The notes beneath the pieces are model-generated. The model saw nothing but the letters and a program-made list of their open reading frames with translations, ran no database searches and was not told where the DNA came from. DNA of 64,000 nucleotides from Escherichia phage dw-ec. Within the stretch, counting starts at the first letter, position 1, and each line of letters opens with the position of its first letter. The translations under genes and the position numbers were made by a program. This document shows positions 2,674-25,470 of the stretch, piece after piece. The stretch is taken from the sequence record OL739525.1. One strand, 5' to 3'.

Positions 2674-3758
2674 TAGAAGTCAAGCTCCTCATCATCAGAG
2701 AGATCTTTGTTAGCTGAATTCAATTTGTAATTAGTTAACTGAATCTCTTGGGCTGCTGACTGAATCAAATCAGGATTCAACCATTTTTCCATCCAAGCTA
2801 AAGGACTATGTTTAGGTGCTTTAAACTTGGCTTTCATTTTCAATCGACGATAAATAGGAGCAGCATTGAAATAAACCCACTGTTTAGACAATTCGGCGTT
2901 AAGACCTACAATAAAACGACCTTCACTAAACAGGTAGTCACACCACTGTTCCTCTTGTTCAACAACAGTGTCGAGGATCAAAGTCAACTCTTCAATATTG
3001 TCTTCGTAAATTTTACGCCAAATTGGGTCATGCATCAATGCATCAATTACAGCATAATCCATCTTAACATGCAAGATTTCATCTAGCATAATTTTCTGGA
3101 TCAGCTTACAAGCCCCAACAAACAATTGTTGTTCTGCCATAGCAAAAGTAGCAGAGAAGGAAGATATAAACTGAATACCTTCTAATCCAATCAGGGCTAC
3201 CATCCCTTTAAGAATCAGCAATCGAAGTTCATCGTTAGCTTCAATCAATCCTAGAGCATACTTATGACCAGCTTCTTCCAACTGACCCATGATATCAGCA
3301 ATGATACCCATACGATTGAAAATTTTATCATTAATCATAATCTGATTGATGACTTCAATTGGATCTGGAGTACATTGACGAATTATTTCAGAATACGTTA
3401 ACGCATGGAGAACTTCCATTTCACTCTGCTTCATCATCATAGCACAGGCTTCATTGTTACTCAAGAATGGAGAGAACAAAGTGATGATTGATTTTGCAAG
3501 AGAATCATTTTCCCATTGGAACGATAAGTTTTTAATCATAACATCATAGTTGTTTTTAGAACAAGCTACGAAATCTTTACGTGTCTGATCCAAGTTAACT
3601 TCGTTTTCATCCCAATCTTGTGCTTTTTGAAGTTTGTAGAGTTTGTGCATTTCTGGATAAGTTACGTTAACAGAATCAAAGATCCCTAATTGCTCCCCCA
3701 AAAATACTGGATATTTTCCTGTTTTGTAAACTTCGTTGTGTAAATTAATTGCTGCCAT
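2673..3758 (-). CDS. nrdB: ribonucleotide reductase class Ia small subunit
   Basis: 361 aa; recognised as NrdB by overall sequence character and size, adjacent to nrdA. Confidence 0.9.
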   Translation of the reverse strand: MAAINLHNEVYKTGKYPVFLGEQLGIFDSVNVTYPEMHKLYKLQKAQDWDENEVNLDQTRKDFVACSKNNYDVMIKNLSFQWENDSLAKSIITLFSPFLSNNEACAMMMKQSEMEVLHALTYSEIIRQCTPDPIEVINQIMINDKIFNRMGIIADIMGQLEEAGHKYALGLIEANDELRLLILKGMVALIGLEGIQFISSFSATFAMAEQQLFVGACKLIQKIMLDEILHVKMDYAVIDALMHDPIWRKIYEDNIEELTLILDTVVEQEEQWCDYLFSEGRFIVGLNAELSKQWVYFNAAPIYRRLKMKAKFKAPKHSPLAWMEKWLNPDLIQSAAQEIQLTNYKLNSANKDLSDDEELDF

Positions 3759-4083
3759 TTAAATCCTCCACTATTTCACAAAAACCTCTTAAGCTTAAAA
3801 TATCTTCTTCCTCAAAATCATTGCTCCGGTAGAAAGCTTCCAGTGCTTCCCATACGCTTCTACCAAGTATAACAGTCACTGTTTCTTCACTTCTTGCCCT
3901 TGTTATTGCGTAAGCCGTGGCTTCTGGATAAAAAGATTCCCAAATCTGCATGTTAGCTATTTCAAGACCGCCAAGATAATGGTGACACCAAGTAGGGGTA
4001 AAATCTTCAGGGCGAATCAACAGAGGCTTAAACCCAGGTCGGTAGATTGGGGTTACTCCAGGTAAAACTATAAGTGTGCTCAT
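3745..4083 (-). CDS. hypothetical protein between nrdA and nrdB (about 112 aa)
   Basis: Track ORF 3745..4152 trimmed to the ATG at 4083 that follows GAGGAGG RBS and lies downstream of the nrdA terminator hairpin. Confidence 0.5.
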   Translation of the reverse strand: MSTLIVLPGVTPIYRPGFKPLLIRPEDFTPTWCHHYLGGLEIANMQIWESFYPEATAYAITRARSEETVTVILGRSVWEALEAFYRSNDFEEEDILSLRGFCEIVEDLNGSN

Positions 4084-4093
4084 AATCCTCCTC

Positions 4094-4116
4094 AATAAAA
4101 AGGGGCTGAAGCCCCT
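4094..4116 (-). terminator. intrinsic terminator after nrdA (possible attenuator before nrdB)
   Basis: AGGGGC-TGAA-GCCCCT hairpin with T-run on the minus strand directly after the nrdA stop. Confidence 0.5.
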
Positions 4117-4123
4117 AGTTTCA

Positions 4124-6364
4124 TCACATCTTGCAAGCTTCACAACCACCATCAGAATCTTCTTGTGCTAAAGAGTCTGCTGATTTTGTTCTACTATTAA
4201 GGTAATACAACGACTTACCACCCAGTCTAGCAAAATTCAGAATAAACTGCATCTCAGCTTTCACTGATAAACGTCCACCTACCAATTTAGAATAATCTAG
4301 CCAAGAATCACAAGAAATTCCTTGGTCCGTAAACTTGGTAAAGATACCATACATTTCTGCAAGGTCTTTAGCCGGAGTGTCCCAGGCGGACTGGTAGAAC
4401 ATTTTCAGTTTTTCGTAGTCTGGAACAATAAATAATACACTACCTTTCTGACTTTGTTTATACATAATAGTATCACGAACAGGATACAGAGAGTTAGTAG
4501 TATTGCTTACCAAACTGCTGGACTCATTAGGTGCGATAGCAGCCAAGACACTGTTACGGATACCACCTTGTTCAATGATTTCAGCACGTAAGCCTTCCCA
4601 GTCCATTTTAAGATCAAAATTACCGATACTATCTACTGTTTTAGCATAAGTGTCAATTGGTAGCCAACCTTGAGGCCATTTGGTCTTATCAATCCATTCC
4701 GCATTACCTTTTTCCTTAGCCAGACGCAGAGAGGCTTTTGCCAACCAGAAGTAATGACGTTCTGCAAGTTCATGCATTAATTTTTTAGCGTAAGCATCTG
4801 AATAATTTACAAAATTACTTGCCAAGTAATGCGCTAAGTTTGTAATGCCTACACCAATAGATCTACGTGCTTTAGCAGTTATTTCGTTATGTTTAAATGG
4901 ATAATCCATTGTTTCAATAACGTTGTCAATTGTCAATACAGTGTAGTATGCAACATCCTCATATTCTTCAGGTAAGACACGACCAGCAACAATAGAAGAT
5001 AAGAAGCATAAAGCCAACTCTTGATCTTCTGTATTCTCACCAGTAAAGAGATCCGGCATACTGTGGAAAGCTTTAGTTGGTAAGAAGATCTCTTGACACA
5101 GGTTTGATTGATACACCGTATCCAGGAAAGGTGTATGGTTGTTAACGTTGTCAGCAAAGAACATGTAAATACGTCCTGTTTCTGCACGTTGAACAATAAT
5201 CTCTGTCAGAAGATCACGAGCCTTAACAAATTTTTTCTTAATGCGACGACGGCTTACTTTGTCATAAACTGCATCAAACTCTTCTTCACTTTTATACAAA
5301 GCTTCATAAAGTTCAGGAGCATCATCACAACTAACTAACATCCAATCTTCGTTTTTTGCTGCTCGACGCAAGAATGAACGGTTAACAACAATAGAATAAT
5401 CCAGTTTGTCTACTCGTTTATCTATAGGTGTTGTTGGATTCTTCAGTCGAATCAGATCGTCGAAGTCTGGTTCAAGTATGGTAAAGGTAACTGTAGCACT
5501 ACCTCCACGGCTTGCTTGCTTCGAAGCTCCAACACTATCTTCCATCCATTTCAGATACGGAAGAAGACCACCATGAATAATACGATTATTCTTAACACCT
5601 TGACCTGTGGCACGAGTTTGAAGATTAACACCAATACCTGCGTTATTCAACGTATACTCATGAGCTAAGTAATTAGCAATGGCTAAAGACTCTGCTGTGT
5701 CATCTGCACGGAATAAACAACAAGACGCACTTCCTTTGATTGGAGTTCGTAGAGTTGTCAGATATGGTGATGGCAGATTAATCTTAAGATCGCTAACATA
5801 AGTATACAGTTTTTTAATATCTTCTATACGGCGTTCTTTTGGTTGGATCTCCATAACCTTCATTGCGATACCAATGAAAAGAAACTGTGGAGACTCATGC
5901 ACCACATCGTTTACTGCATCTCGGATAAGATATTTATCCACCATCTGACGTAAAACAGAATAGCCATAAGTTAGATTTTTATTATGCTTTACAATCTTAC
6001 CAATTTCTTTGATCTCTTCATCAGTATAATCCATTTTAGCCCAATGTCCACGTTCTACCATATCATGATAAAAGGTATTCAGTGAAGGGATACTGTGGTA
6101 TCCCCCATGAGCCTGTTTGTAAATCATACCCAGAAGAAGTCTTCCTGCCATATCACTGTAAGCTTGTGTTTTCTTGTCAATACACGCTGCAATCATTGCT
6201 TTATGCAGATCACGTGTAGACACACCGTCATAACACCGCTTCACAGCTTCTAATTCAATTTCAGACCAGTTTAGTTTACCTGCTGCAAATTCAGACCACT
6301 TGCGAAGTTTTTCTGGATTAAACTCCTCTGTCTTACCGTTAGATTTAGTTACAAAACGAATCAA
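4124..6364 (-). CDS. nrdA: ribonucleotide reductase class Ia large subunit
   Basis: 746 aa; recognised as NrdA by overall sequence character and size, with C-terminal Cys residues. Confidence 0.92.
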   Translation of the reverse strand: MIRFVTKSNGKTEEFNPEKLRKWSEFAAGKLNWSEIELEAVKRCYDGVSTRDLHKAMIAACIDKKTQAYSDMAGRLLLGMIYKQAHGGYHSIPSLNTFYHDMVERGHWAKMDYTDEEIKEIGKIVKHNKNLTYGYSVLRQMVDKYLIRDAVNDVVHESPQFLFIGIAMKVMEIQPKERRIEDIKKLYTYVSDLKINLPSPYLTTLRTPIKGSASCCLFRADDTAESLAIANYLAHEYTLNNAGIGVNLQTRATGQGVKNNRIIHGGLLPYLKWMEDSVGASKQASRGGSATVTFTILEPDFDDLIRLKNPTTPIDKRVDKLDYSIVVNRSFLRRAAKNEDWMLVSCDDAPELYEALYKSEEEFDAVYDKVSRRRIKKKFVKARDLLTEIIVQRAETGRIYMFFADNVNNHTPFLDTVYQSNLCQEIFLPTKAFHSMPDLFTGENTEDQELALCFLSSIVAGRVLPEEYEDVAYYTVLTIDNVIETMDYPFKHNEITAKARRSIGVGITNLAHYLASNFVNYSDAYAKKLMHELAERHYFWLAKASLRLAKEKGNAEWIDKTKWPQGWLPIDTYAKTVDSIGNFDLKMDWEGLRAEIIEQGGIRNSVLAAIAPNESSSLVSNTTNSLYPVRDTIMYKQSQKGSVLFIVPDYEKLKMFYQSAWDTPAKDLAEMYGIFTKFTDQGISCDSWLDYSKLVGGRLSVKAEMQFILNFARLGGKSLYYLNSRTKSADSLAQEDSDGGCEACKM

Positions 6365-22547: not shown

Positions 22548-22796
22548 ATGTCTCTATTAGAAAAACACGTGTTTGAAGATGGTAACGGCAATGCAGTTTT
22601 TCTTTTCCATCCAGAAAAATACACATCTGAAAACAATGGTACAACTTCTATTGTAATCACTAAAGATGTTAAAGTTATTGATTTCTTGGCTCTGATGCGA
22701 GAGATGGATCTTGAAATTAATACTTTTAACGCAGAAGCTTTGGTTGTTGCTCTTCTGGAAAAGAAAGATAGTGAAGAAGTAGCAGAATATGCTTAA
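22548..22796 (+). CDS. hypothetical protein (about 82 aa)
   Basis: Track ORF 22482..22796 trimmed to ATG after AGGAGG RBS. Confidence 0.45.
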   Translation: MSLLEKHVFEDGNGNAVFLFHPEKYTSENNGTTSIVITKDVKVIDFLALMREMDLEINTFNAEALVVALLEKKDSEEVAEYA

Positions 22797-22803
22797 ATAA
22801 CTA

Positions 22804-22833
22804 TTGACAAACGTATCCTTCATATGTTAGGAT
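22804..22833 (+). promoter_or_regulatory. sigma70-like promoter P1 of tRNA array (CTATTGACAA ... TGtTAGGAT) with 10-bp inverted repeat
   Basis: TTGACA, 18-bp spacer, extended -10; AACGTATCCT / AGGATACGTT inverted repeat spans spacer and -10. Confidence 0.5.
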
Positions 22834-23042
22834 ACGTTCATCAAGTGTGGTAACAGGGTCGTTGACTTTTGTTAAGAGGGGCTTGCACTGCGGTAGTGTT
22901 AGAGACTACTTCTTCAGAGGTTAGCTACCAAAGAGGAAAAGGAATAGTCTCGGCTCAAGAACTTTTACGCTGAAAGTTGGGCTTGGTCTTAGAGAATGTA
23001 GCGGTTCTCTACAATCGTCAGCGTCTCTGTTACCACATTTAT

Positions 23043-23117
23043 GGCCCTGTAGCTCAATGGGAGAGCTGTCGGCTCATAACCGATAGGTAGCTGGATCGAA
23101 ACCAGCCAGGGCCACCA
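23043..23117 (+). tRNA. tRNA with CAT anticodon (Met or lysidine-type Ile2)
   Basis: Cloverleaf folds by hand: GGCCCTG/CAGGGCC acceptor, anticodon loop CTCATAA, CCA encoded. Confidence 0.75.
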
Positions 23118-23194: not shown

Positions 23195-23390
23195 GAACAT
23201 TTTAACATGAATTAGCTCAAGTGATTTGAACCCACTACTGATCATGGTGGCAGAGAATGAGGCAAGTATGTCAGACATTATAAACAAAGGCCACGGTTAT
23301 ATTAGAAGACATAAATGCTCGAAGAGCACCGTTCGTTGAGAACGGGGGTTGGTGGAGTCACCATTCATGGTAAAATGTTTTAAAAAACTA

Positions 23391-23420
23391 TTGACAACTA
23401 ACATTATTTTATGTTAGATT
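23391..23420 (+). promoter_or_regulatory. sigma70-like promoter P2 inside tRNA array (CTATTGACAA ... TGtTAGATT)
   Basis: TTGACA, 18-bp spacer, extended -10; CTAACAT/ATGTTAG inverted repeat. Confidence 0.5.
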
Positions 23421-23428
23421 ATAAGTAT

Positions 23429-23519
23429 GGAAGGGCAAATCGATGTGGCGACGAAAACGGTCTTGAAAACCGCCGAGCTTGAAAGAGCCTTGGGAGTTCG
23501 ACTCTCCCTCCTTCCGCCA
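23429..23519 (+). tRNA. tRNA-Ser (TGA), class II
   Basis: Anticodon loop CTTGAAA, long variable arm, T-arm GGGAG-TTCGACT-CTCCC, CCA encoded. Confidence 0.8.
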
Positions 23520-23524
23520 GATTA

Positions 23525-23610
23525 GGTAGATTGGTGAAATGGTAGCCACAACAGTTTGCTAAACTGTAGTCGGAAACGGCGTGTAGGTTCGAGTCCTACA
23601 TCTACCGCCA
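23525..23610 (+). tRNA. tRNA-Ser (GCT), class II
   Basis: GGTAGAT/ATCTACC acceptor, anticodon loop TTGCTAA, long variable arm, CCA encoded. Confidence 0.8.
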
Positions 23611-23740
23611 AGTTCTTTTTAATATAGCTTACTTTAATAGAGTAAACTTTCGGCAGATGGCCTCCACCATCTTACCGATAACTCATAGTTAGTGGTGTGA
23701 ACACTGGCTATTTTAAAAAGAATTTAAATATTAGTATTTA

Positions 23741-23828
23741 GGTGAGTTAATTCCGTAGGGGTAGCGGGGCAGACTGTAAATCTGTTATCATTGCGATTCG
23801 GGTGGTTCGACTCCATCACTCACCACCA
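23741..23828 (+). tRNA. tRNA-Tyr (GTA), class II
   Basis: GGTGAGT/ACTCACC acceptor, anticodon loop CTGTAAA, long variable arm, CCA encoded. Confidence 0.8.
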
Positions 23829-23834
23829 AATTAA

Positions 23835-23920
23835 GATGAGTTGGCTGAATGGTTTAAGCGGCGGACTGTTAATCCGTGTTCGAAAGAACGATATAGGTTC
23901 AAATCCTATACTCATCGCCA
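23835..23920 (+). tRNA. class II tRNA with apparent GTT (Asn-type) anticodon; isotype uncertain
   Basis: Good acceptor and T-arm, 15-nt variable arm, anticodon stem GCGGA/TCCGT with loop CTGTTAA; class II architecture with an Asn anticodon is non-canonical. Confidence 0.55.
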
Positions 23921-23927
23921 GAATTAT

Positions 23928-24004
23928 GGACTTGTAGAGTTAAGGTAAACCCCCAGTCGCCAAGAGGCTTCTGGAATTGCAGGTATCGAATCCTGCCGAG
24001 TCCC
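23928..24004 (+). pseudogene. degenerate tRNA-like element
   Basis: Acceptor pairing GGACTTG/CGAGTCC and T-arm-like GCAGG-TATCGAAT-CCTGC (8-nt loop), but no canonical anticodon arm could be folded. Confidence 0.35.
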
Positions 24005-24010
24005 AGTTTT

Positions 24011-24085
24011 GCTCCTATAGTATAATGGCTATTACAACGGTTTTGTAATCCGTGGATCTCTGTTCGATTCAGAGTGGGAGCACCA
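24011..24085 (+). tRNA. tRNA-Thr (TGT)
   Basis: GCTCCTA/TGGGAGC acceptor, anticodon loop TTTGTAA (one non-WC pair closing the stem), CCA encoded. Confidence 0.7.
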
Positions 24086-24358
24086 ACATAACATTAAGAG
24101 CACTGTGATTGATCGTCGTATCCTGTGCACAAGGTCTGCTCGAAAGACAGTGTTCTTAGTATTGTGTTGATCACACAAAGAGTTACCTGAAACTTGACCG
24201 GAGTAGGGTTGGATGGGGCAAAAGAAGAAGCGGCTCTCCCATCGACAGCAACGAAGAATAATATTTGACTTTGGTTTTGTATTATTTTAAGTTAGCTTAC
24301 CGAACGTAGGGCTAGTCACCCAATGGGATACTCGTCACTGTCCCACTCAATAAAACTA

Positions 24359-24388
24359 TTGACAACCAATAGTAAAATGTAGTATAGT
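24359..24388 (+). promoter_or_regulatory. sigma70-like promoter P3 inside tRNA array (CTATTGACAA-18-TATAGT)
   Basis: Consensus hexamers about 10 nt upstream of tRNA-Gly. Confidence 0.5.
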
Positions 24389-24399
24389 AAAGATGTAGG

Positions 24400-24473: not shown

Positions 24474-24571
24474 AATTATTTAATAAAGGGTTGCCAGAAA
24501 ACTTTCTCTTTTACTCATGGTTTTCTCCTTCTCTCACACCTCTTCTGGTTGCCCTTCATTAAATGATTTAT

Positions 24572-24652: not shown

Positions 24653-24729
24653 CGGAATTTAGCTCAGTTTGGTAGAGCATACGCTTTGGGAGCGTAGGGT
24701 CGCAGGTTCGAATCCTGCAATTCCGACCA
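24653..24729 (+). tRNA. tRNA-Pro (TGG)
   Basis: CGGAATT/AATTCCG acceptor, anticodon loop TTTGGGA, T-arm GCAGG-TTCGAAT-CCTGC, CCA encoded. Confidence 0.85.
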
Positions 24730-24735
24730 ATCAAA

Positions 24736-24809
24736 TGTTTCGTAGTTCAATGGTAGAACCCACGACTGATAATCGTGAGACACAAGTTCGATTCTTGTCG
24801 AAACAACCA
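24736..24809 (+). tRNA. tRNA-Ile (GAT)
   Basis: TGTTTCG/CGAAACA acceptor, anticodon stem CACGA/TCGTG with loop CTGATAA, CCA encoded. Confidence 0.8.
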
Positions 24810-24811
24810 GT

Positions 24812-24881
24812 TTCCCGTTAGACTTACAGGATAAGAGTTCCACAACTTATTGTGATGCTGGTTCGAATCCAGCACGGGATA
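24812..24881 (+). pseudogene. tRNA-like element with aberrant anticodon arm
   Basis: Canonical T-arm GCTGG-TTCGAAT-CCAGC and acceptor (1-72 mismatch), but anticodon region folds only as a 4-bp stem with 6-nt loop ACTTAT; 70 nt, no CCA. Confidence 0.4.
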
Positions 24882-24887
24882 CATAAT

Positions 24888-24966
24888 AGCGGGATAGAGG
24901 AGTCTGGTCGTCCTCGCCAGTTTCATATGCTGGAGATCATCGGTTCAAATCCGATTCCCGCCTCCA
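24888..24966 (+). tRNA. tRNA-Met (CAT), second CAT-anticodon tRNA
   Basis: Anticodon stem CCAGT/GCTGG with loop TTCATAT, T-arm ATCGG-TTCAAAT-CCGAT, CCA encoded; A1-C72 mismatch at top of acceptor. Confidence 0.65.
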
Positions 24967-25081
24967 AATATCGCTTGCCAGCGGTATCTTTGAAGACCTT
25001 GCCTGGTTCCTTCTAAGATGGAGGGGTGCGACTCCTTAACGCACAATTATAATAAAGCATTTCAAATTAACAGTATTTATT

Positions 25082-25104
25082 AGCCTCCTTATTGGAGGCT
25101 TTTT
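25082..25104 (+). terminator. intrinsic terminator closing the tRNA array
   Basis: AGCCTCC-loop-GGAGGCT hairpin followed by TTTTT. Confidence 0.6.
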
Positions 25105-25123
25105 GCTATCTATTGAATAAAAC

Positions 25124-25152
25124 TTGACTTATTATTTTTTATATGTTAAGAT
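25124..25152 (+). promoter_or_regulatory. sigma70-like promoter (TTGACT-17-TGtTAAGAT)
   Basis: Hexamers upstream of the 25174 gene; shares TATGTTA motif with array promoters. Confidence 0.45.
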
Positions 25153-25173
25153 AAAGTTTAGGAGGATTTTATT

Positions 25174-25470
25174 ATGCCTAAACTAAAACGTGGTCGTGGA
25201 AGACCAACAGCCGAAATGCAACAGATCTACGCAATGGATGCGGCGCAAGCAAGTGTAAAAGAATTATTTGCAGAGCATTATTTAGAAGCTATGCGATATA
25301 TTGTTGAACTTGTTAATGATAAGGATGCAGCAAAACCTCTCCGCTTCCAAGCAGCTAAAGCTATTAAAGAGCAAGTAGAAGAATGGTTAGAAGAACATTA
25401 TGAAGCTATGGAAGAAGAAACCCCTGCCGTGCAGAATACAGATGACGTTCCTAAAAAGATCGTAATCTAA
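25174..25470 (+). CDS. hypothetical DNA-binding protein (KRGRGRP motif); small-terminase candidate
   Basis: N-terminal basic AT-hook-like KRGRGRPT; AGGAGG RBS; upstream of terminase region. Confidence 0.35.
   Translation: MPKLKRGRGRPTAEMQQIYAMDAAQASVKELFAEHYLEAMRYIVELVNDKDAAKPLRFQAAKAIKEQVEEWLEEHYEAMEEETPAVQNTDDVPKKIVI

Follow-up and report, generated by a model that had tools for sequence, protein, structure and literature searches.

In Escherichia phage dw-ec (sequence record OL739525.1), the larger spacers of a tRNA array are occupied by conserved structured RNAs of other kinds. The stretch of 64,000 nucleotides (nt) that was analyzed is referred to here as the window, and two gaps in its array, gap 1 (23195–23390) and gap 2 (24086–24358), carry the principal elements. 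Gap 1 holds G1, an RNA of 187 nt (23195..23381), and gap 2 opens with H4a, an irregular hairpin of 82 nt (24086..24167). The gap elements are conserved and covary, they fold on the strand of the tRNAs, they lack coding character, their boundaries are flush with tRNA ends, and they recur in other phages, with modules of the H4a type being gained and lost as units. We hold it moderately probable that the gaps are genes for non-tRNA structured RNAs within phage tRNA operons, freed by tRNA processing as are species 1 and 2 of phage T4. The initial annotation had pointed to these gaps, and to a third unassigned stretch ahead of the array terminator (24967–25081), as possible analogs of the stable small RNAs of T4-like phages. 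Its observation is partly confirmed and its interpretation partly supported; the finding is real and is richer than originally stated. On computational grounds G1, H4a, and the conserved part of the third stretch (G7, below) are all well supported as RNAs. All array features, and all coordinates given below for the window, are on the plus (+) strand.

Conservation and Fold of G1

Gap 1 folds with a minimum free energy of −53.9 kcal/mol (z = −3.46), which none of 200 shuffles equaled. G1 was found by blastn in 97 phage records. Its identity is approximately 82% in the phiWec179/PsgM04F clade and approximately 70% in Seunavirus (Vequintavirinae; PVP-SE1, GAP31, 4MG, SSE121, and others), and at every locus fetched it lies inside a tRNA array. 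An nhmmer profile built from G1 recovered all copies, the diversity being limited to three clades, and a wider search by pattern scans of IMG/VR and metagenomes yielded only Seunavirus-like and Phapecoctavirus-like copies.

The alignment of ten G1 sequences (A2) consists of invariant blocks (UUAGCUCA, AUUUGA, CUGAUCAU, GAGAAUGAG, GUCGnAGAG, and GGUGGAGUCACCAU) between which lie variable stems with 1-nt insertions or deletions (indels). Its consensus fold is a 16-bp terminal helix around five inner helices, and comprises a 6-bp hairpin with the loop CUGAUCA, a variable three-part arm, an extended CCGUUC/GAACGG hairpin, and a GGUG-GAGU-CACC hairpin. The CCGUUC-GUUGA-GAACGG hairpin (23329..23345; helix 8, lengthened by flanking pairs) was one of two that the initial annotation had offered as examples of local structure. 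This one is real and conserved, and phage GAP31 carries a compensatory change in it from C-G to U-A. The GGUG-GAGU-CACC hairpin (23351..23362; helix 9) is invariant and stands just 5′ of the 3′ strand of the terminal helix.

Across the 60 pairs of this fold, 96.8% of alignment cells are standard pairs, compared with 38–45% when the partners are slid by 1–3 columns. Eighteen of the 60 pairs have changed on both sides (4–5 in the slid controls), and the covariation score is 0.327, against at most 0.076 for the slid controls; none of 500 shuffles reached the observed values. The compensatory changes are spread over five helices. The pairing contains 67 G·U cells and no A·C cells, and the alignment folds at −90.8 in the forward direction versus −80.5 as the reverse complement.

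Both boundaries of G1 coincide with tRNA ends. In Phapecoctavirus it starts 0 nt after the CCA of tRNA-Arg(UCU), and in GAP31, 4MG, and SPLA5a it ends 1–2 nt 5′ of tRNA-Leu.

The tRNA-Derived Half of G1

The 5′ half of G1 is, judged by its sequence, derived from tRNA-Ile(GAU). Positions 23212–23249 align to positions 8–43 of the window's own tRNA-Ile(GAU) with 29 of 37 positions identical, a span covering U8-A9, the D arm, and the whole of the anticodon arm. This match had a local score of 19, against 9.4 ± 1.4 for shuffles compared with all twelve tRNAs, and none of 2,000 shuffles scored as high. The tRNA-like part (23212..23249) comprises a U8-A9-like UA, a D-arm-like segment, and an anticodon-arm-like hairpin, which is the 6-bp covarying stem of helix 4 (23232..23250) with its 7-nt loop CUGAUCA (23238–23244).

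In helix 4, four of the six pairs have changed on both sides and pairing is retained in 100% of cases, while the loop CUGAUCA is invariant; an invariant loop over a covarying stem implies that the loop sequence itself is under selection. CUGAUCA reads as the anticodon loop of tRNA-Ile (GAU) with C in place of A37, and it includes the palindrome UGAUCA.

The likeness to tRNA extends to the ends of the molecule and then departs from it. The seven bases 5′ of the UA pair perfectly with the seven bases 3′ of GGUG-GAGU-CACC, in the manner of an acceptor stem, and the helix then continues to 16–17 bp. Approximately 105 nt of conserved extra helices stand where a variable loop and T arm would be, and the GGUG-GAGU-CACC hairpin occupies the T-arm position. 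Measured against the tRNA family (RF00005), G1, alone among these elements, has a D arm and an anticodon arm whose loop measures 7 nt and carries U as its second base; no T arm or T-loop, no acceptor stem of 7 bp, and no CCA were found in it. Having neither T-loop nor CCA, it cannot serve as a tRNA. We regard G1 as a putative new family of tRNA-derived RNA, common to two subfamilies of large coliphages.

These results qualify the description of the gaps as having neither an open reading frame (ORF) nor a tRNA fold, and the non-tRNA character that it implied. ARAGORN and Rfam report no tRNA in 23195–23390, 24086–24358, or 24967–25081, and no tRNA or Rfam family was detected in these stretches at E ≤ 10 (ARAGORN, Rfam 15); searches of G1 alone and of the array against Rfam, at gathering cut-offs and at E ≤ 10, returned only tRNAs and noise. 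The 5′ part of gap 1 nonetheless resembles a D arm followed by an anticodon arm and is tRNA-derived, and gap 2 is a composite of a hairpin module and a weakly folded conserved stretch.

A tRNA origin raises the question of whether the gaps are decaying pseudogenes, neutral relics of a larger array. Besides the tRNA-Ile-like half of G1, two further gaps (G3 and G6, below) resemble degenerate tRNAs, and some records annotate pseudo-tRNAs in the array. Neutral decay is nevertheless a very improbable account, for G1 persists in two phage subfamilies, with five of its helices showing compensatory changes and with long invariant blocks beyond its tRNA-like part, and H4a, which has no tRNA features, is conserved in many unrelated phages.

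The possibility that the gaps are small protein-coding genes has some annotation in its favor: ORFs of 25–48 amino acids (aa) are present, and the records of WPEC4, PsgM04F, KE22, and NINP13076 annotate coding sequences (CDSs) there. These ORFs differ in frame, strand, and position from record to record. The variable columns of G1 are distributed 32/29/27 by codon position, all of its indels are of 1 nt, and its stop codons vary among relatives; in gap 2, the ORF that begins with ATG at 24213 (24213–24290) ends after two codons in EF1-1. A coding role is accordingly the least credible of the explanations that we weighed, and the initial statement that the gaps hold no ORF stands in the sense that only short ORFs, of at most 48 aa and none of them conserved, occur there. 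CDSs labeled "hypothetical protein" over G1, gap 2, or H4a are found in WPEC4, PsgM04F, KE22, NINP13076, Bas79, Bas81, and PJ16 (loci L010–L012, L014, L015, and L057). They are probably spurious calls over structured RNA.

H4a, a Hairpin Shared by Unrelated Phages

H4a begins at the base after the CCA of tRNA-Thr. Its folding is strand-specific (z = −3.82 on the plus strand versus −0.94 on the minus strand), and blastn matched it, unexpectedly, to the unrelated siphoviruses SCNJ1-C, Bas81, Bas79, and PJ16. Pattern scans located further copies in prophage-like IMG/VR contigs of 30–50 kb and in SSU5-like phage-plasmids, and a scan of genome contigs gave almost entirely chance matches and one Citrobacter prophage.

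Fourteen sequences were aligned (A6), and a covariance model was built from them. In the 24 pairs of H4a, 97.6% of cells are paired, against 37–49% in slid controls; nine of the 24 pairs have changed on both sides (0–3 in the slid controls), and the covariation score is 0.361, against at most 0.088. The covariance model scores true copies at 72–105 bits on the plus strand and 15–28 bits on the minus strand. G·U cells number 49 and A·C cells 3, and for H4a as for G1 this asymmetry identifies the folded strand as the tRNA strand. We consider H4a to represent a widespread, unannotated hairpin family that, on the evidence of these alignments and searches, has no Rfam family.

Its distribution is broad. 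A 151-nt stretch of a lambdoid prophage that includes an H4a copy (L088) matched, by blastn, 611 of 5426 complete E. coli genomes (~11%), with 535 of the 634 places lying on plasmids of ~90–105 kb, P1-like and SSU5-like phage-plasmids. These matches are mostly partial and of low identity (388 records at 60–80%, and only 64 covering at least 80% of the query), so the count of 611 takes in related frame modules besides H4a proper. Among 56 distinct contexts, some 29 have a tRNA on the same strand within 400 nt, and the rest have none nearby. H4a lies flush 3′ of tRNA-Thr in the window and in five SSU5-like contigs, and flush 5′ of tRNA-Arg(UCU) in four prophage contigs; in lambdoid prophages it is found 160 nt after tRNA-Arg, between the Q antiterminator and the holin.

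The apical loop is a 7-nt G-N-G-C-N′-C-A closed by a U-A pair. Its hexamer is GUGCAC in the window (24125..24130) and GGGCCC or GCGCGC in relatives, and in 20 of 22 distinct H4a sequences, which show these three kinds, it is a perfect palindrome. The switches from one hexamer to another occur within H4a frames that are otherwise nearly identical. A pair between N and N′ in the same molecule (pair 41–45) would enclose a loop of 2 nt, so the complementarity of N and N′ is better ascribed to loop-loop pairing between copies or to template-switch mutation, which perfects palindromes; either may be its origin, the two being inseparable here. GCGCGC and GUGCAC are the classic hexamers of the dimerization initiation site (DIS) of HIV-1, whose kissing loop H4a resembles in presenting an apical, self-complementary hexamer that stays palindromic while varying between lineages. 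The H4a loop differs in size, having 7 nt with one flanking A compared with 9 nt in DIS, and template-switch mutation could also yield such palindromes.

The main rival to our reading is that the gaps have a purely structural role as passive spacers, which would fold upon themselves so as not to disturb the folding and processing of neighboring tRNAs, might also give RNase III or RNase E a point of entry, and whose excised pieces would be without function. The larger gaps are all closed by long terminal helices and abut tRNA ends, and long helices are typical RNase III substrates. An insulator, however, needs a stem and no specific loops. In these RNAs it is the stems that covary, and the sequences of loops and internal loops stay unchanged from one phage subfamily to another (G1: CUGAUCA, GAGAAUGAG, and GGUGGAGUCACC; H4a: GAUUGAUCGUCGU / GUCUGCUCGAAG). 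About half of the H4a contexts are tRNA-free, and most tRNAs of the array lie 2–9 nt apart without any such spacer. On balance we think a spacer role rather unlikely.

Stem-Framed Modules and Their Turnover

The basal stem of H4a belongs to a frame, 5′ CACAACAGGUAAGRGCAUU ... AGUGCUCUUWCCGUUGUG 3′, that is reused with differing inner sequences. P1-like plasmids carry related stem-framed modules and not the H4a hairpin itself; one tandem copy in a P1-like plasmid contains a T-arm-like GGGUUCGAAUCCC. Turnover is visible among close relatives. In PsgM04F, tRNA-Thr and H4a are separated by one additional framed module (4051–4140 of locus L012), the inner sequence of which matches a module of the siphovirus Bas81, and phiWec179 differs in module number. 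With the frame reused and modules gained, lost, and shared in this way, the modules behave as exchangeable cassettes.

In the P1-like plasmid NZ_CP029117 (1827–2620 of locus L106) and in an SSU5-like plasmid (2353–2573 of locus L107), four to five framed modules stand in tandem 3′ of tRNA-Thr, alternating with GUGAAUGCGCAGGCUGAUGCGC...CCGGAGAUCAGCACCGG segments; one such segment matches STnc100 at a sub-threshold score. The tandem stretch bears no annotation in the RefSeq record, and the number of modules varies among P1-like genomes. In the reference genome of phage P1, blastn places plp and upl under the homologous region. Weak, sub-threshold matches to models of transfer-messenger RNA (tmRNA) occur 5′ of the tRNA/hairpin islands of a siphovirus (2316–2471 of locus L013) and of the two phage-plasmids (1171–1339 of L106 and 1388–1490 of L107), with scores of 26.7 bits (E = 4e-5) for beta_tmRNA and 31.9 bits for permuted tmRNA; they may represent another tRNA-like structured RNA.

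Such mobility is also what one would expect of elements that act at the level of DNA, either as recombination or mobility sites of tRNA-linked cassettes or as sites for dimeric regulators, with the matched changes in the two arms, and the apical palindromes, arising from template-switch (quasipalindrome) mutation and not from selection on RNA. Modules that share a frame of 17–19 bp, differ in inner sequence, are gained and lost in close relatives, and are common to unrelated phages would fit this explanation, as would an apical sequence that is a perfect palindrome (e.g., CUUGCGCGCAAG) and the placement of the ends of G1 and gap 2 shortly 5′ of promoters. Template switching creates and maintains perfect hairpins. 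The excess of G·U over A·C cells (67 and 49 versus 0 and 3 in G1 and H4a, respectively), together with the preference of the covariance model and of the folding energy for the tRNA strand, is not the signature of a cruciform in DNA or of a symmetric binding site for protein. Homogenization has moreover spared the bulges and internal loops, which are conserved, and the multi-branched fold of G1 is no simple inverted repeat. We judge a DNA-level role distinctly improbable and continue with the reading of the gaps as RNA genes.

The Remainder of Gap 2 and the Third Stretch

Conservation of structure among relatives, which the initial annotation had named as its own test, is clear for gap 1 and for the first third of gap 2, and it does not extend to the rest of gap 2. 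The fold of gap 2 as a whole is not beyond chance (z = −1.38; 18 of 200 shuffles as good). Its second cited hairpin, TGTG-TTGATCA-CACA (24164–24178), finds no support: its 5′ arm already serves as the 3′ strand in the basal, covarying stem of H4a, and in three of five relatives an uncompensated C-to-A change breaks the hairpin. The sequence TGATCA occurs in only three hairpin loops of the window, two of them within the array. TGATCA/GATC was considered as a Dam-related signal and rejected, there being no enrichment (24 TGATCA observed, 21 expected).

After H4a comes a near-invariant block (24168..24218), conserved across Phapecoctavirus clades whose other gaps differ by ~18%. It is followed by a hypervariable segment (24219..24303) with small, clade-specific hairpins and indels that are not multiples of three, and then by a conserved block, ACCGAACGUAGGG...GUCACUGUCCCAC (24304..24346), that is also present in Citrobacter phage Tr1, 22 nt 5′ of an ORF. 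Covariation over 24168–24346 is modest (6 compensatory and 8 broken of 47 pairs). Apart from the hypervariable segment, we describe this region as conserved, weakly folded sequence.

The third unassigned stretch exists as first described, and its first 88 nt, termed G7 (24967..25054), are conserved. This 3′ trailer lies directly 3′ of the last tRNA, a tRNA-Met, and is kept in all clades and in Tr1, where tRNA-Ile precedes it instead of tRNA-Met; a variable AU-rich segment and then the terminator follow. Its fold is marginal (z = −1.95 for 24967–25054; −1.65 for 24967–25081), and it resembles Hfq-dependent small RNAs (sRNAs) weakly, at sub-threshold scores (RyhB, 29.4 bits; MicA, 24 bits). By position, between the last tRNA, which ends at 24966, and the intrinsic terminator, G7 would be the 3′ external transcribed spacer (3′ETS) of the last transcription unit.

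Organization of the Array

From its sequence the window is assigned to Phapecoctavirus (phAPEC8-like coliphage, myovirus of ~150 kb, Stephanstirmvirinae). The 2.3-kb array region is 99.7% identical to that of Escherichia phage anhysbys and 97–99% identical to those of dozens of further Phapecoctavirus genomes. ARAGORN and Rfam combined identify twelve tRNAs, and in all twelve true tRNAs of the array the CCA is encoded. They are tRNA-Met/Ile2(CAU) (starting at 23043), tRNA-Arg(UCU) (23120), tRNA-Ser(UGA) (23429–23519), tRNA-Ser(GCU) (starting at 23525), tRNA-Tyr(GUA) (23741–23828), tRNA-Asn (starting at 23835), tRNA-Thr (24011), tRNA-Gly (24400), tRNA-Gln (24572), tRNA-Pro (24653), tRNA-Ile(GAU) (24736), and the last, a tRNA-Met (24888–24966). 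Two of these are missed by ARAGORN and are real tRNAs all the same: tRNA-Ser(UGA), which gives a sub-threshold tRNA-Sec match in Rfam and is annotated in phage ASO2A, and tRNA-Tyr(GUA), found by Rfam only (39 bits), which one other record lists as a pseudo-tRNA and others as tRNA-Tyr. Many Phapecoctavirus genomes have an insert of ~90 nt between tRNA-Gln and tRNA-Pro (3370–3462 of the ASO2A locus, L002) without significant fold (z = −0.12).

The most satisfactory reading of the array is one of three transcription units, in which there are eight non-tRNA gaps. The array is opened by a promoter-like site, P1 (22804..22833), consisting of TTGACA, 18 nt, and TAGGAT with a TG. P2 (23391..23420) lies 10 nt 3′ of G1, and P3 (24359..24388), with 11 of 12 consensus matches, is invariant in relatives. 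A fourth promoter-like site, at 25124 (25113–25155), serves the ORF at 25174. Taken as a set, the hits of the promoter scan did not exceed the shuffled expectation (7 found, 7.8 expected). As read from the sequence, the sites at 22804, 23391, 24359, and 25124 have in common the context AACTATTGACAA...ATGTTAGnAT, and over 22795–22835, 23383–23422, 24350–24390, and 25113–25155 they share an extended AAAACTATTGACAA, then, after ~15 nt, a TATGTTAGAT-like element with a TG. This four-site type is probably the early promoter class of the phage. A GUCACC motif, which had been considered as a regulator site, precedes P2 and P3 only. The intrinsic terminator of the array (25082..25100) is also annotated in ASO2A.

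Gap 1 and gap 2 each close a transcription unit, lying at its 3′ end and 5′ of the promoter that follows. This position, and a UUUU after the terminal helix of G1, might suggest that the folds are cis-acting attenuators or non-canonical terminators between the three tRNA units. No terminator-like site was found there, and the basal parts of the helices are AU-rich. In Seunavirus, G1 is directly followed by tRNA-Leu with no promoter between them, and in prophages H4a stands immediately 5′ of tRNA-Arg, where termination would abolish the tRNA. A role as a cis-acting signal is hence highly improbable.

Structured RNAs in the other gaps. The leader between P1 and the first tRNA carries G0 (22843..23040), a structured RNA of ~198 nt (z = −4.95) with a terminal helix of ~23 bp that ends 2 nt before tRNA-Met(CAU). 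Across Phapecoctavirus clades its 71 consensus pairs include 10 compensatory and 1 broken, and it has no Rfam match. G2 (23612–23723), a cloverleaf-shaped RNA of ~112 nt (z = −4.07) with an 11-bp closing stem and three hairpins, shows 5 compensatory and 0 broken of 38 pairs. A CCUCCA loop in G2 was considered as an anti-Shine-Dalgarno sequence and dropped, the loop being unconserved. Since G0 and G2 covary as well, the array as a rule intersperses structured non-tRNA RNAs among its tRNAs.

G5 (24474–24571) is a long hairpin (z = −5.68) with a 45-nt pyrimidine-rich (CU-rich) loop, UCUCCUUCUCUCACACCUCUUCU, that is reminiscent of the 16S rRNA 3′ terminus. Clades with ~80% identity in their other gaps share G5 at 100% identity, so that it is strongly constrained and offers no variation for covariation. 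G3 (23921–24010) and G6 (24810–24887) are tRNA-like, with acceptor stems and good T arms, no encoded CCA, and anticodon arms that are aberrant or enlarged (a loop of 4 nt or of ~10 nt). They are 95–99% conserved across clades, and neither ARAGORN nor Rfam calls a tRNA in them.

Relation to Known RNAs

The species 1 and 2 RNAs of T4 (rnaC and rnaD) are likewise small non-tRNA RNAs in a phage tRNA cluster that lie on the tRNA strand and abut tRNAs. The likeness extends to layout: T4 has tRNA-Arg(UCU), 1 nt, rnaD, 6 nt, and rnaC, and G1 also follows tRNA-Arg(UCU) directly. To this extent the proposed analogy to T4 small RNAs, in strand, in ends that coincide with tRNA ends, and in shared arrangement, is borne out; it does not extend to homology with rnaC or rnaD, to which neither G1 nor H4a shows similarity in sequence or by model. 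Neither the nhmmer profile of G1 nor a covariance model (R1) matched anything in the T4 locus (L058). G1 is longer than the T4 RNAs (187 nt versus 139 and 119), and the folds differ. T4 rnaC folds well (z = −4.57), its tRNA-like parts being a T arm and an acceptor-like stem, so that the two retain complementary parts of a tRNA: rnaC the T arm, and G1 the D-like and anticodon-like arms without a T-loop. To our knowledge, the function of T4 species 1 and 2 is still unknown.

YrlA and tmRNA share with G1 a long helix that joins the 5′ and 3′ ends and a module copied from tRNA, and none of the three is usable as an ordinary tRNA. YrlA and tmRNA mimic the acceptor/T-arm half, whereas G1 mimics the D/anticodon half. 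The Rfam models of YrlA and tmRNA do not match G1, and the only YrlA (RF02553) match in the array (22.8 bits) covers true tRNAs at 24674–24793, outside the gaps.

The 3′ETS-leuZ sRNA sponge and rtT, an RNA from the tyrT operon, both originate as fragments of tRNA precursors, are freed by processing, and then act in trans. The order of last tRNA, spacer, and intrinsic terminator is the same for G7, for which they may be the closest mechanistic models, by analogy. G1 and H4a differ from them in being internal, highly structured, and not terminator-bearing, and Rfam, which includes rtT, gave no rtT match.

ROOL and GOLLD are structured RNAs of phages and prophages, of unknown function and often adjacent to tRNAs, that have been reported to self-assemble through loop contacts. 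They are far larger (~580–800 nt) and have no Rfam match in the window. In lambdoid prophages, STnc100, PasA–D, AgvB, AsxR, and Esr41 are encoded near antiterminator Q, lysis genes, and tRNAs, and intrinsic terminators with U tracts form the 3′ ends of the Pas sRNAs (Storz-lab 2026 preprint, doi 10.64898/2026.05.13.724894). H4a shares the genomic neighborhood of these sRNAs in lambdoid prophages and P1-like plasmids and, unlike the Pas sRNAs, has no terminator. Set apart by the terminators described for that group, H4a is unlikely to be identical to a Pas sRNA. Rfam models of STnc100, AgvB, AsxR, and Esr41 have no match in the window at E ≤ 10; the STnc100-like segment (RF02076) of a P1-like plasmid scores 37.8 bits against a cut-off of 47 and lies directly 3′ of a related framed module, not on it. 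A catalog of 10,006 candidate structured RNAs in viruses, published in 2023 (PMC10690425), may already list some of these motifs, unnamed.

A Hypothesis for the Origin and Role of the Gap RNAs

We propose the following pathway. TTGACA-type promoters at 22804, 23391, and 24359 would drive transcription of the gap RNAs in the same sense as the tRNAs, and the host machinery that matures the flanking tRNAs would cut them from the polycistronic precursor. Maturation of the 3′ ends of tRNA-Arg or tRNA-Thr would make their 5′ ends; their 3′ ends would arise, in relatives, where RNase P cuts at the following tRNA. Terminal helices of 16–21 bp would shield the products from exonucleases, leaving discrete, stable RNAs like T4 species 1 and 2; with helices of that length, accumulation as stable RNAs is to be expected. 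H4a would belong, as a single module, to a set of stem-framed hairpin cassettes that unrelated enterobacterial phages gain, lose, and exchange, usually beside tRNA genes; its 6-nt self-complementary apical loop would be maintained by selection. G7 and the terminator would form the 3′ external transcribed spacer of the operon.

The invariant CUGAUCA of G1 and the maintained palindrome of H4a suggest that the loops are working surfaces. They might act as a decoy that titrates a partner recognizing anticodon arms, or might pair, loop to loop, with a second copy.

Several points weigh against this proposal. The expression, ends, and stability of the gap RNAs are inferred, as are their processing and action in trans, and a loop-based function for G1 and H4a is a guess. 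No terminator was found on the plus strand after G1 or gap 2, that at 25082 being the only one in the array. With no tRNA inside 400 nt in roughly one-half of its contexts, H4a cannot owe its ends to tRNA processing alone. Within gap 2, 24168–24262 and 24295–24352 have no significant fold (z = +0.81 and −0.22, respectively). The G1 sequences sampled represent three clades; helices 2, 3, and 9 show no variation by which covariation could be judged; and an alternative, tRNA-like pairing of the D stem is possible. The best tRNA match of the PVP-SE1 copy is again tRNA-Ile(GAU), but it is not significant, significance being confined to the Phapecoctavirus copy.

A bolder version of the hypothesis can be framed, which we regard as speculative and, on present evidence, unlikely. 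Phage tRNA operons would house a modular, horizontally exchanged class of RNA cassettes not recognized before, each with a long frame helix around interchangeable inner sequence that is in some cases tRNA-derived, and with loops, either self-complementary or anticodon-like, as working surfaces. Kissing-loop dimers or higher assemblies would be formed by H4a and perhaps, by way of its UGAUCA loop, by G1, and G1 would mimic the anticodon arm of tRNA-Ile and so titrate a host factor, e.g., a defense nuclease that targets tRNA. If this were true, the arrays would be counter-defense RNA islands besides being codon supplements.

Phage tRNA arrays are usually annotated as tRNAs separated by empty spacers or doubtful small ORFs. 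In the array described here, the larger spacers are conserved structured RNAs that are not listed in Rfam, and at a minimum, a number of the GenBank features labeled "hypothetical protein" in these stretches are probably erroneous. Should the RNAs prove to act in trans, the 50-year-old puzzle of T4 species 1 and 2 would extend to a broad set of phages, and the invariant loops, the palindromic loops, and the natural presence/absence variants would provide tractable handles on it. The answer may then help to explain the very presence of tRNA clusters in phages, one idea being that they counter defenses that target tRNA.

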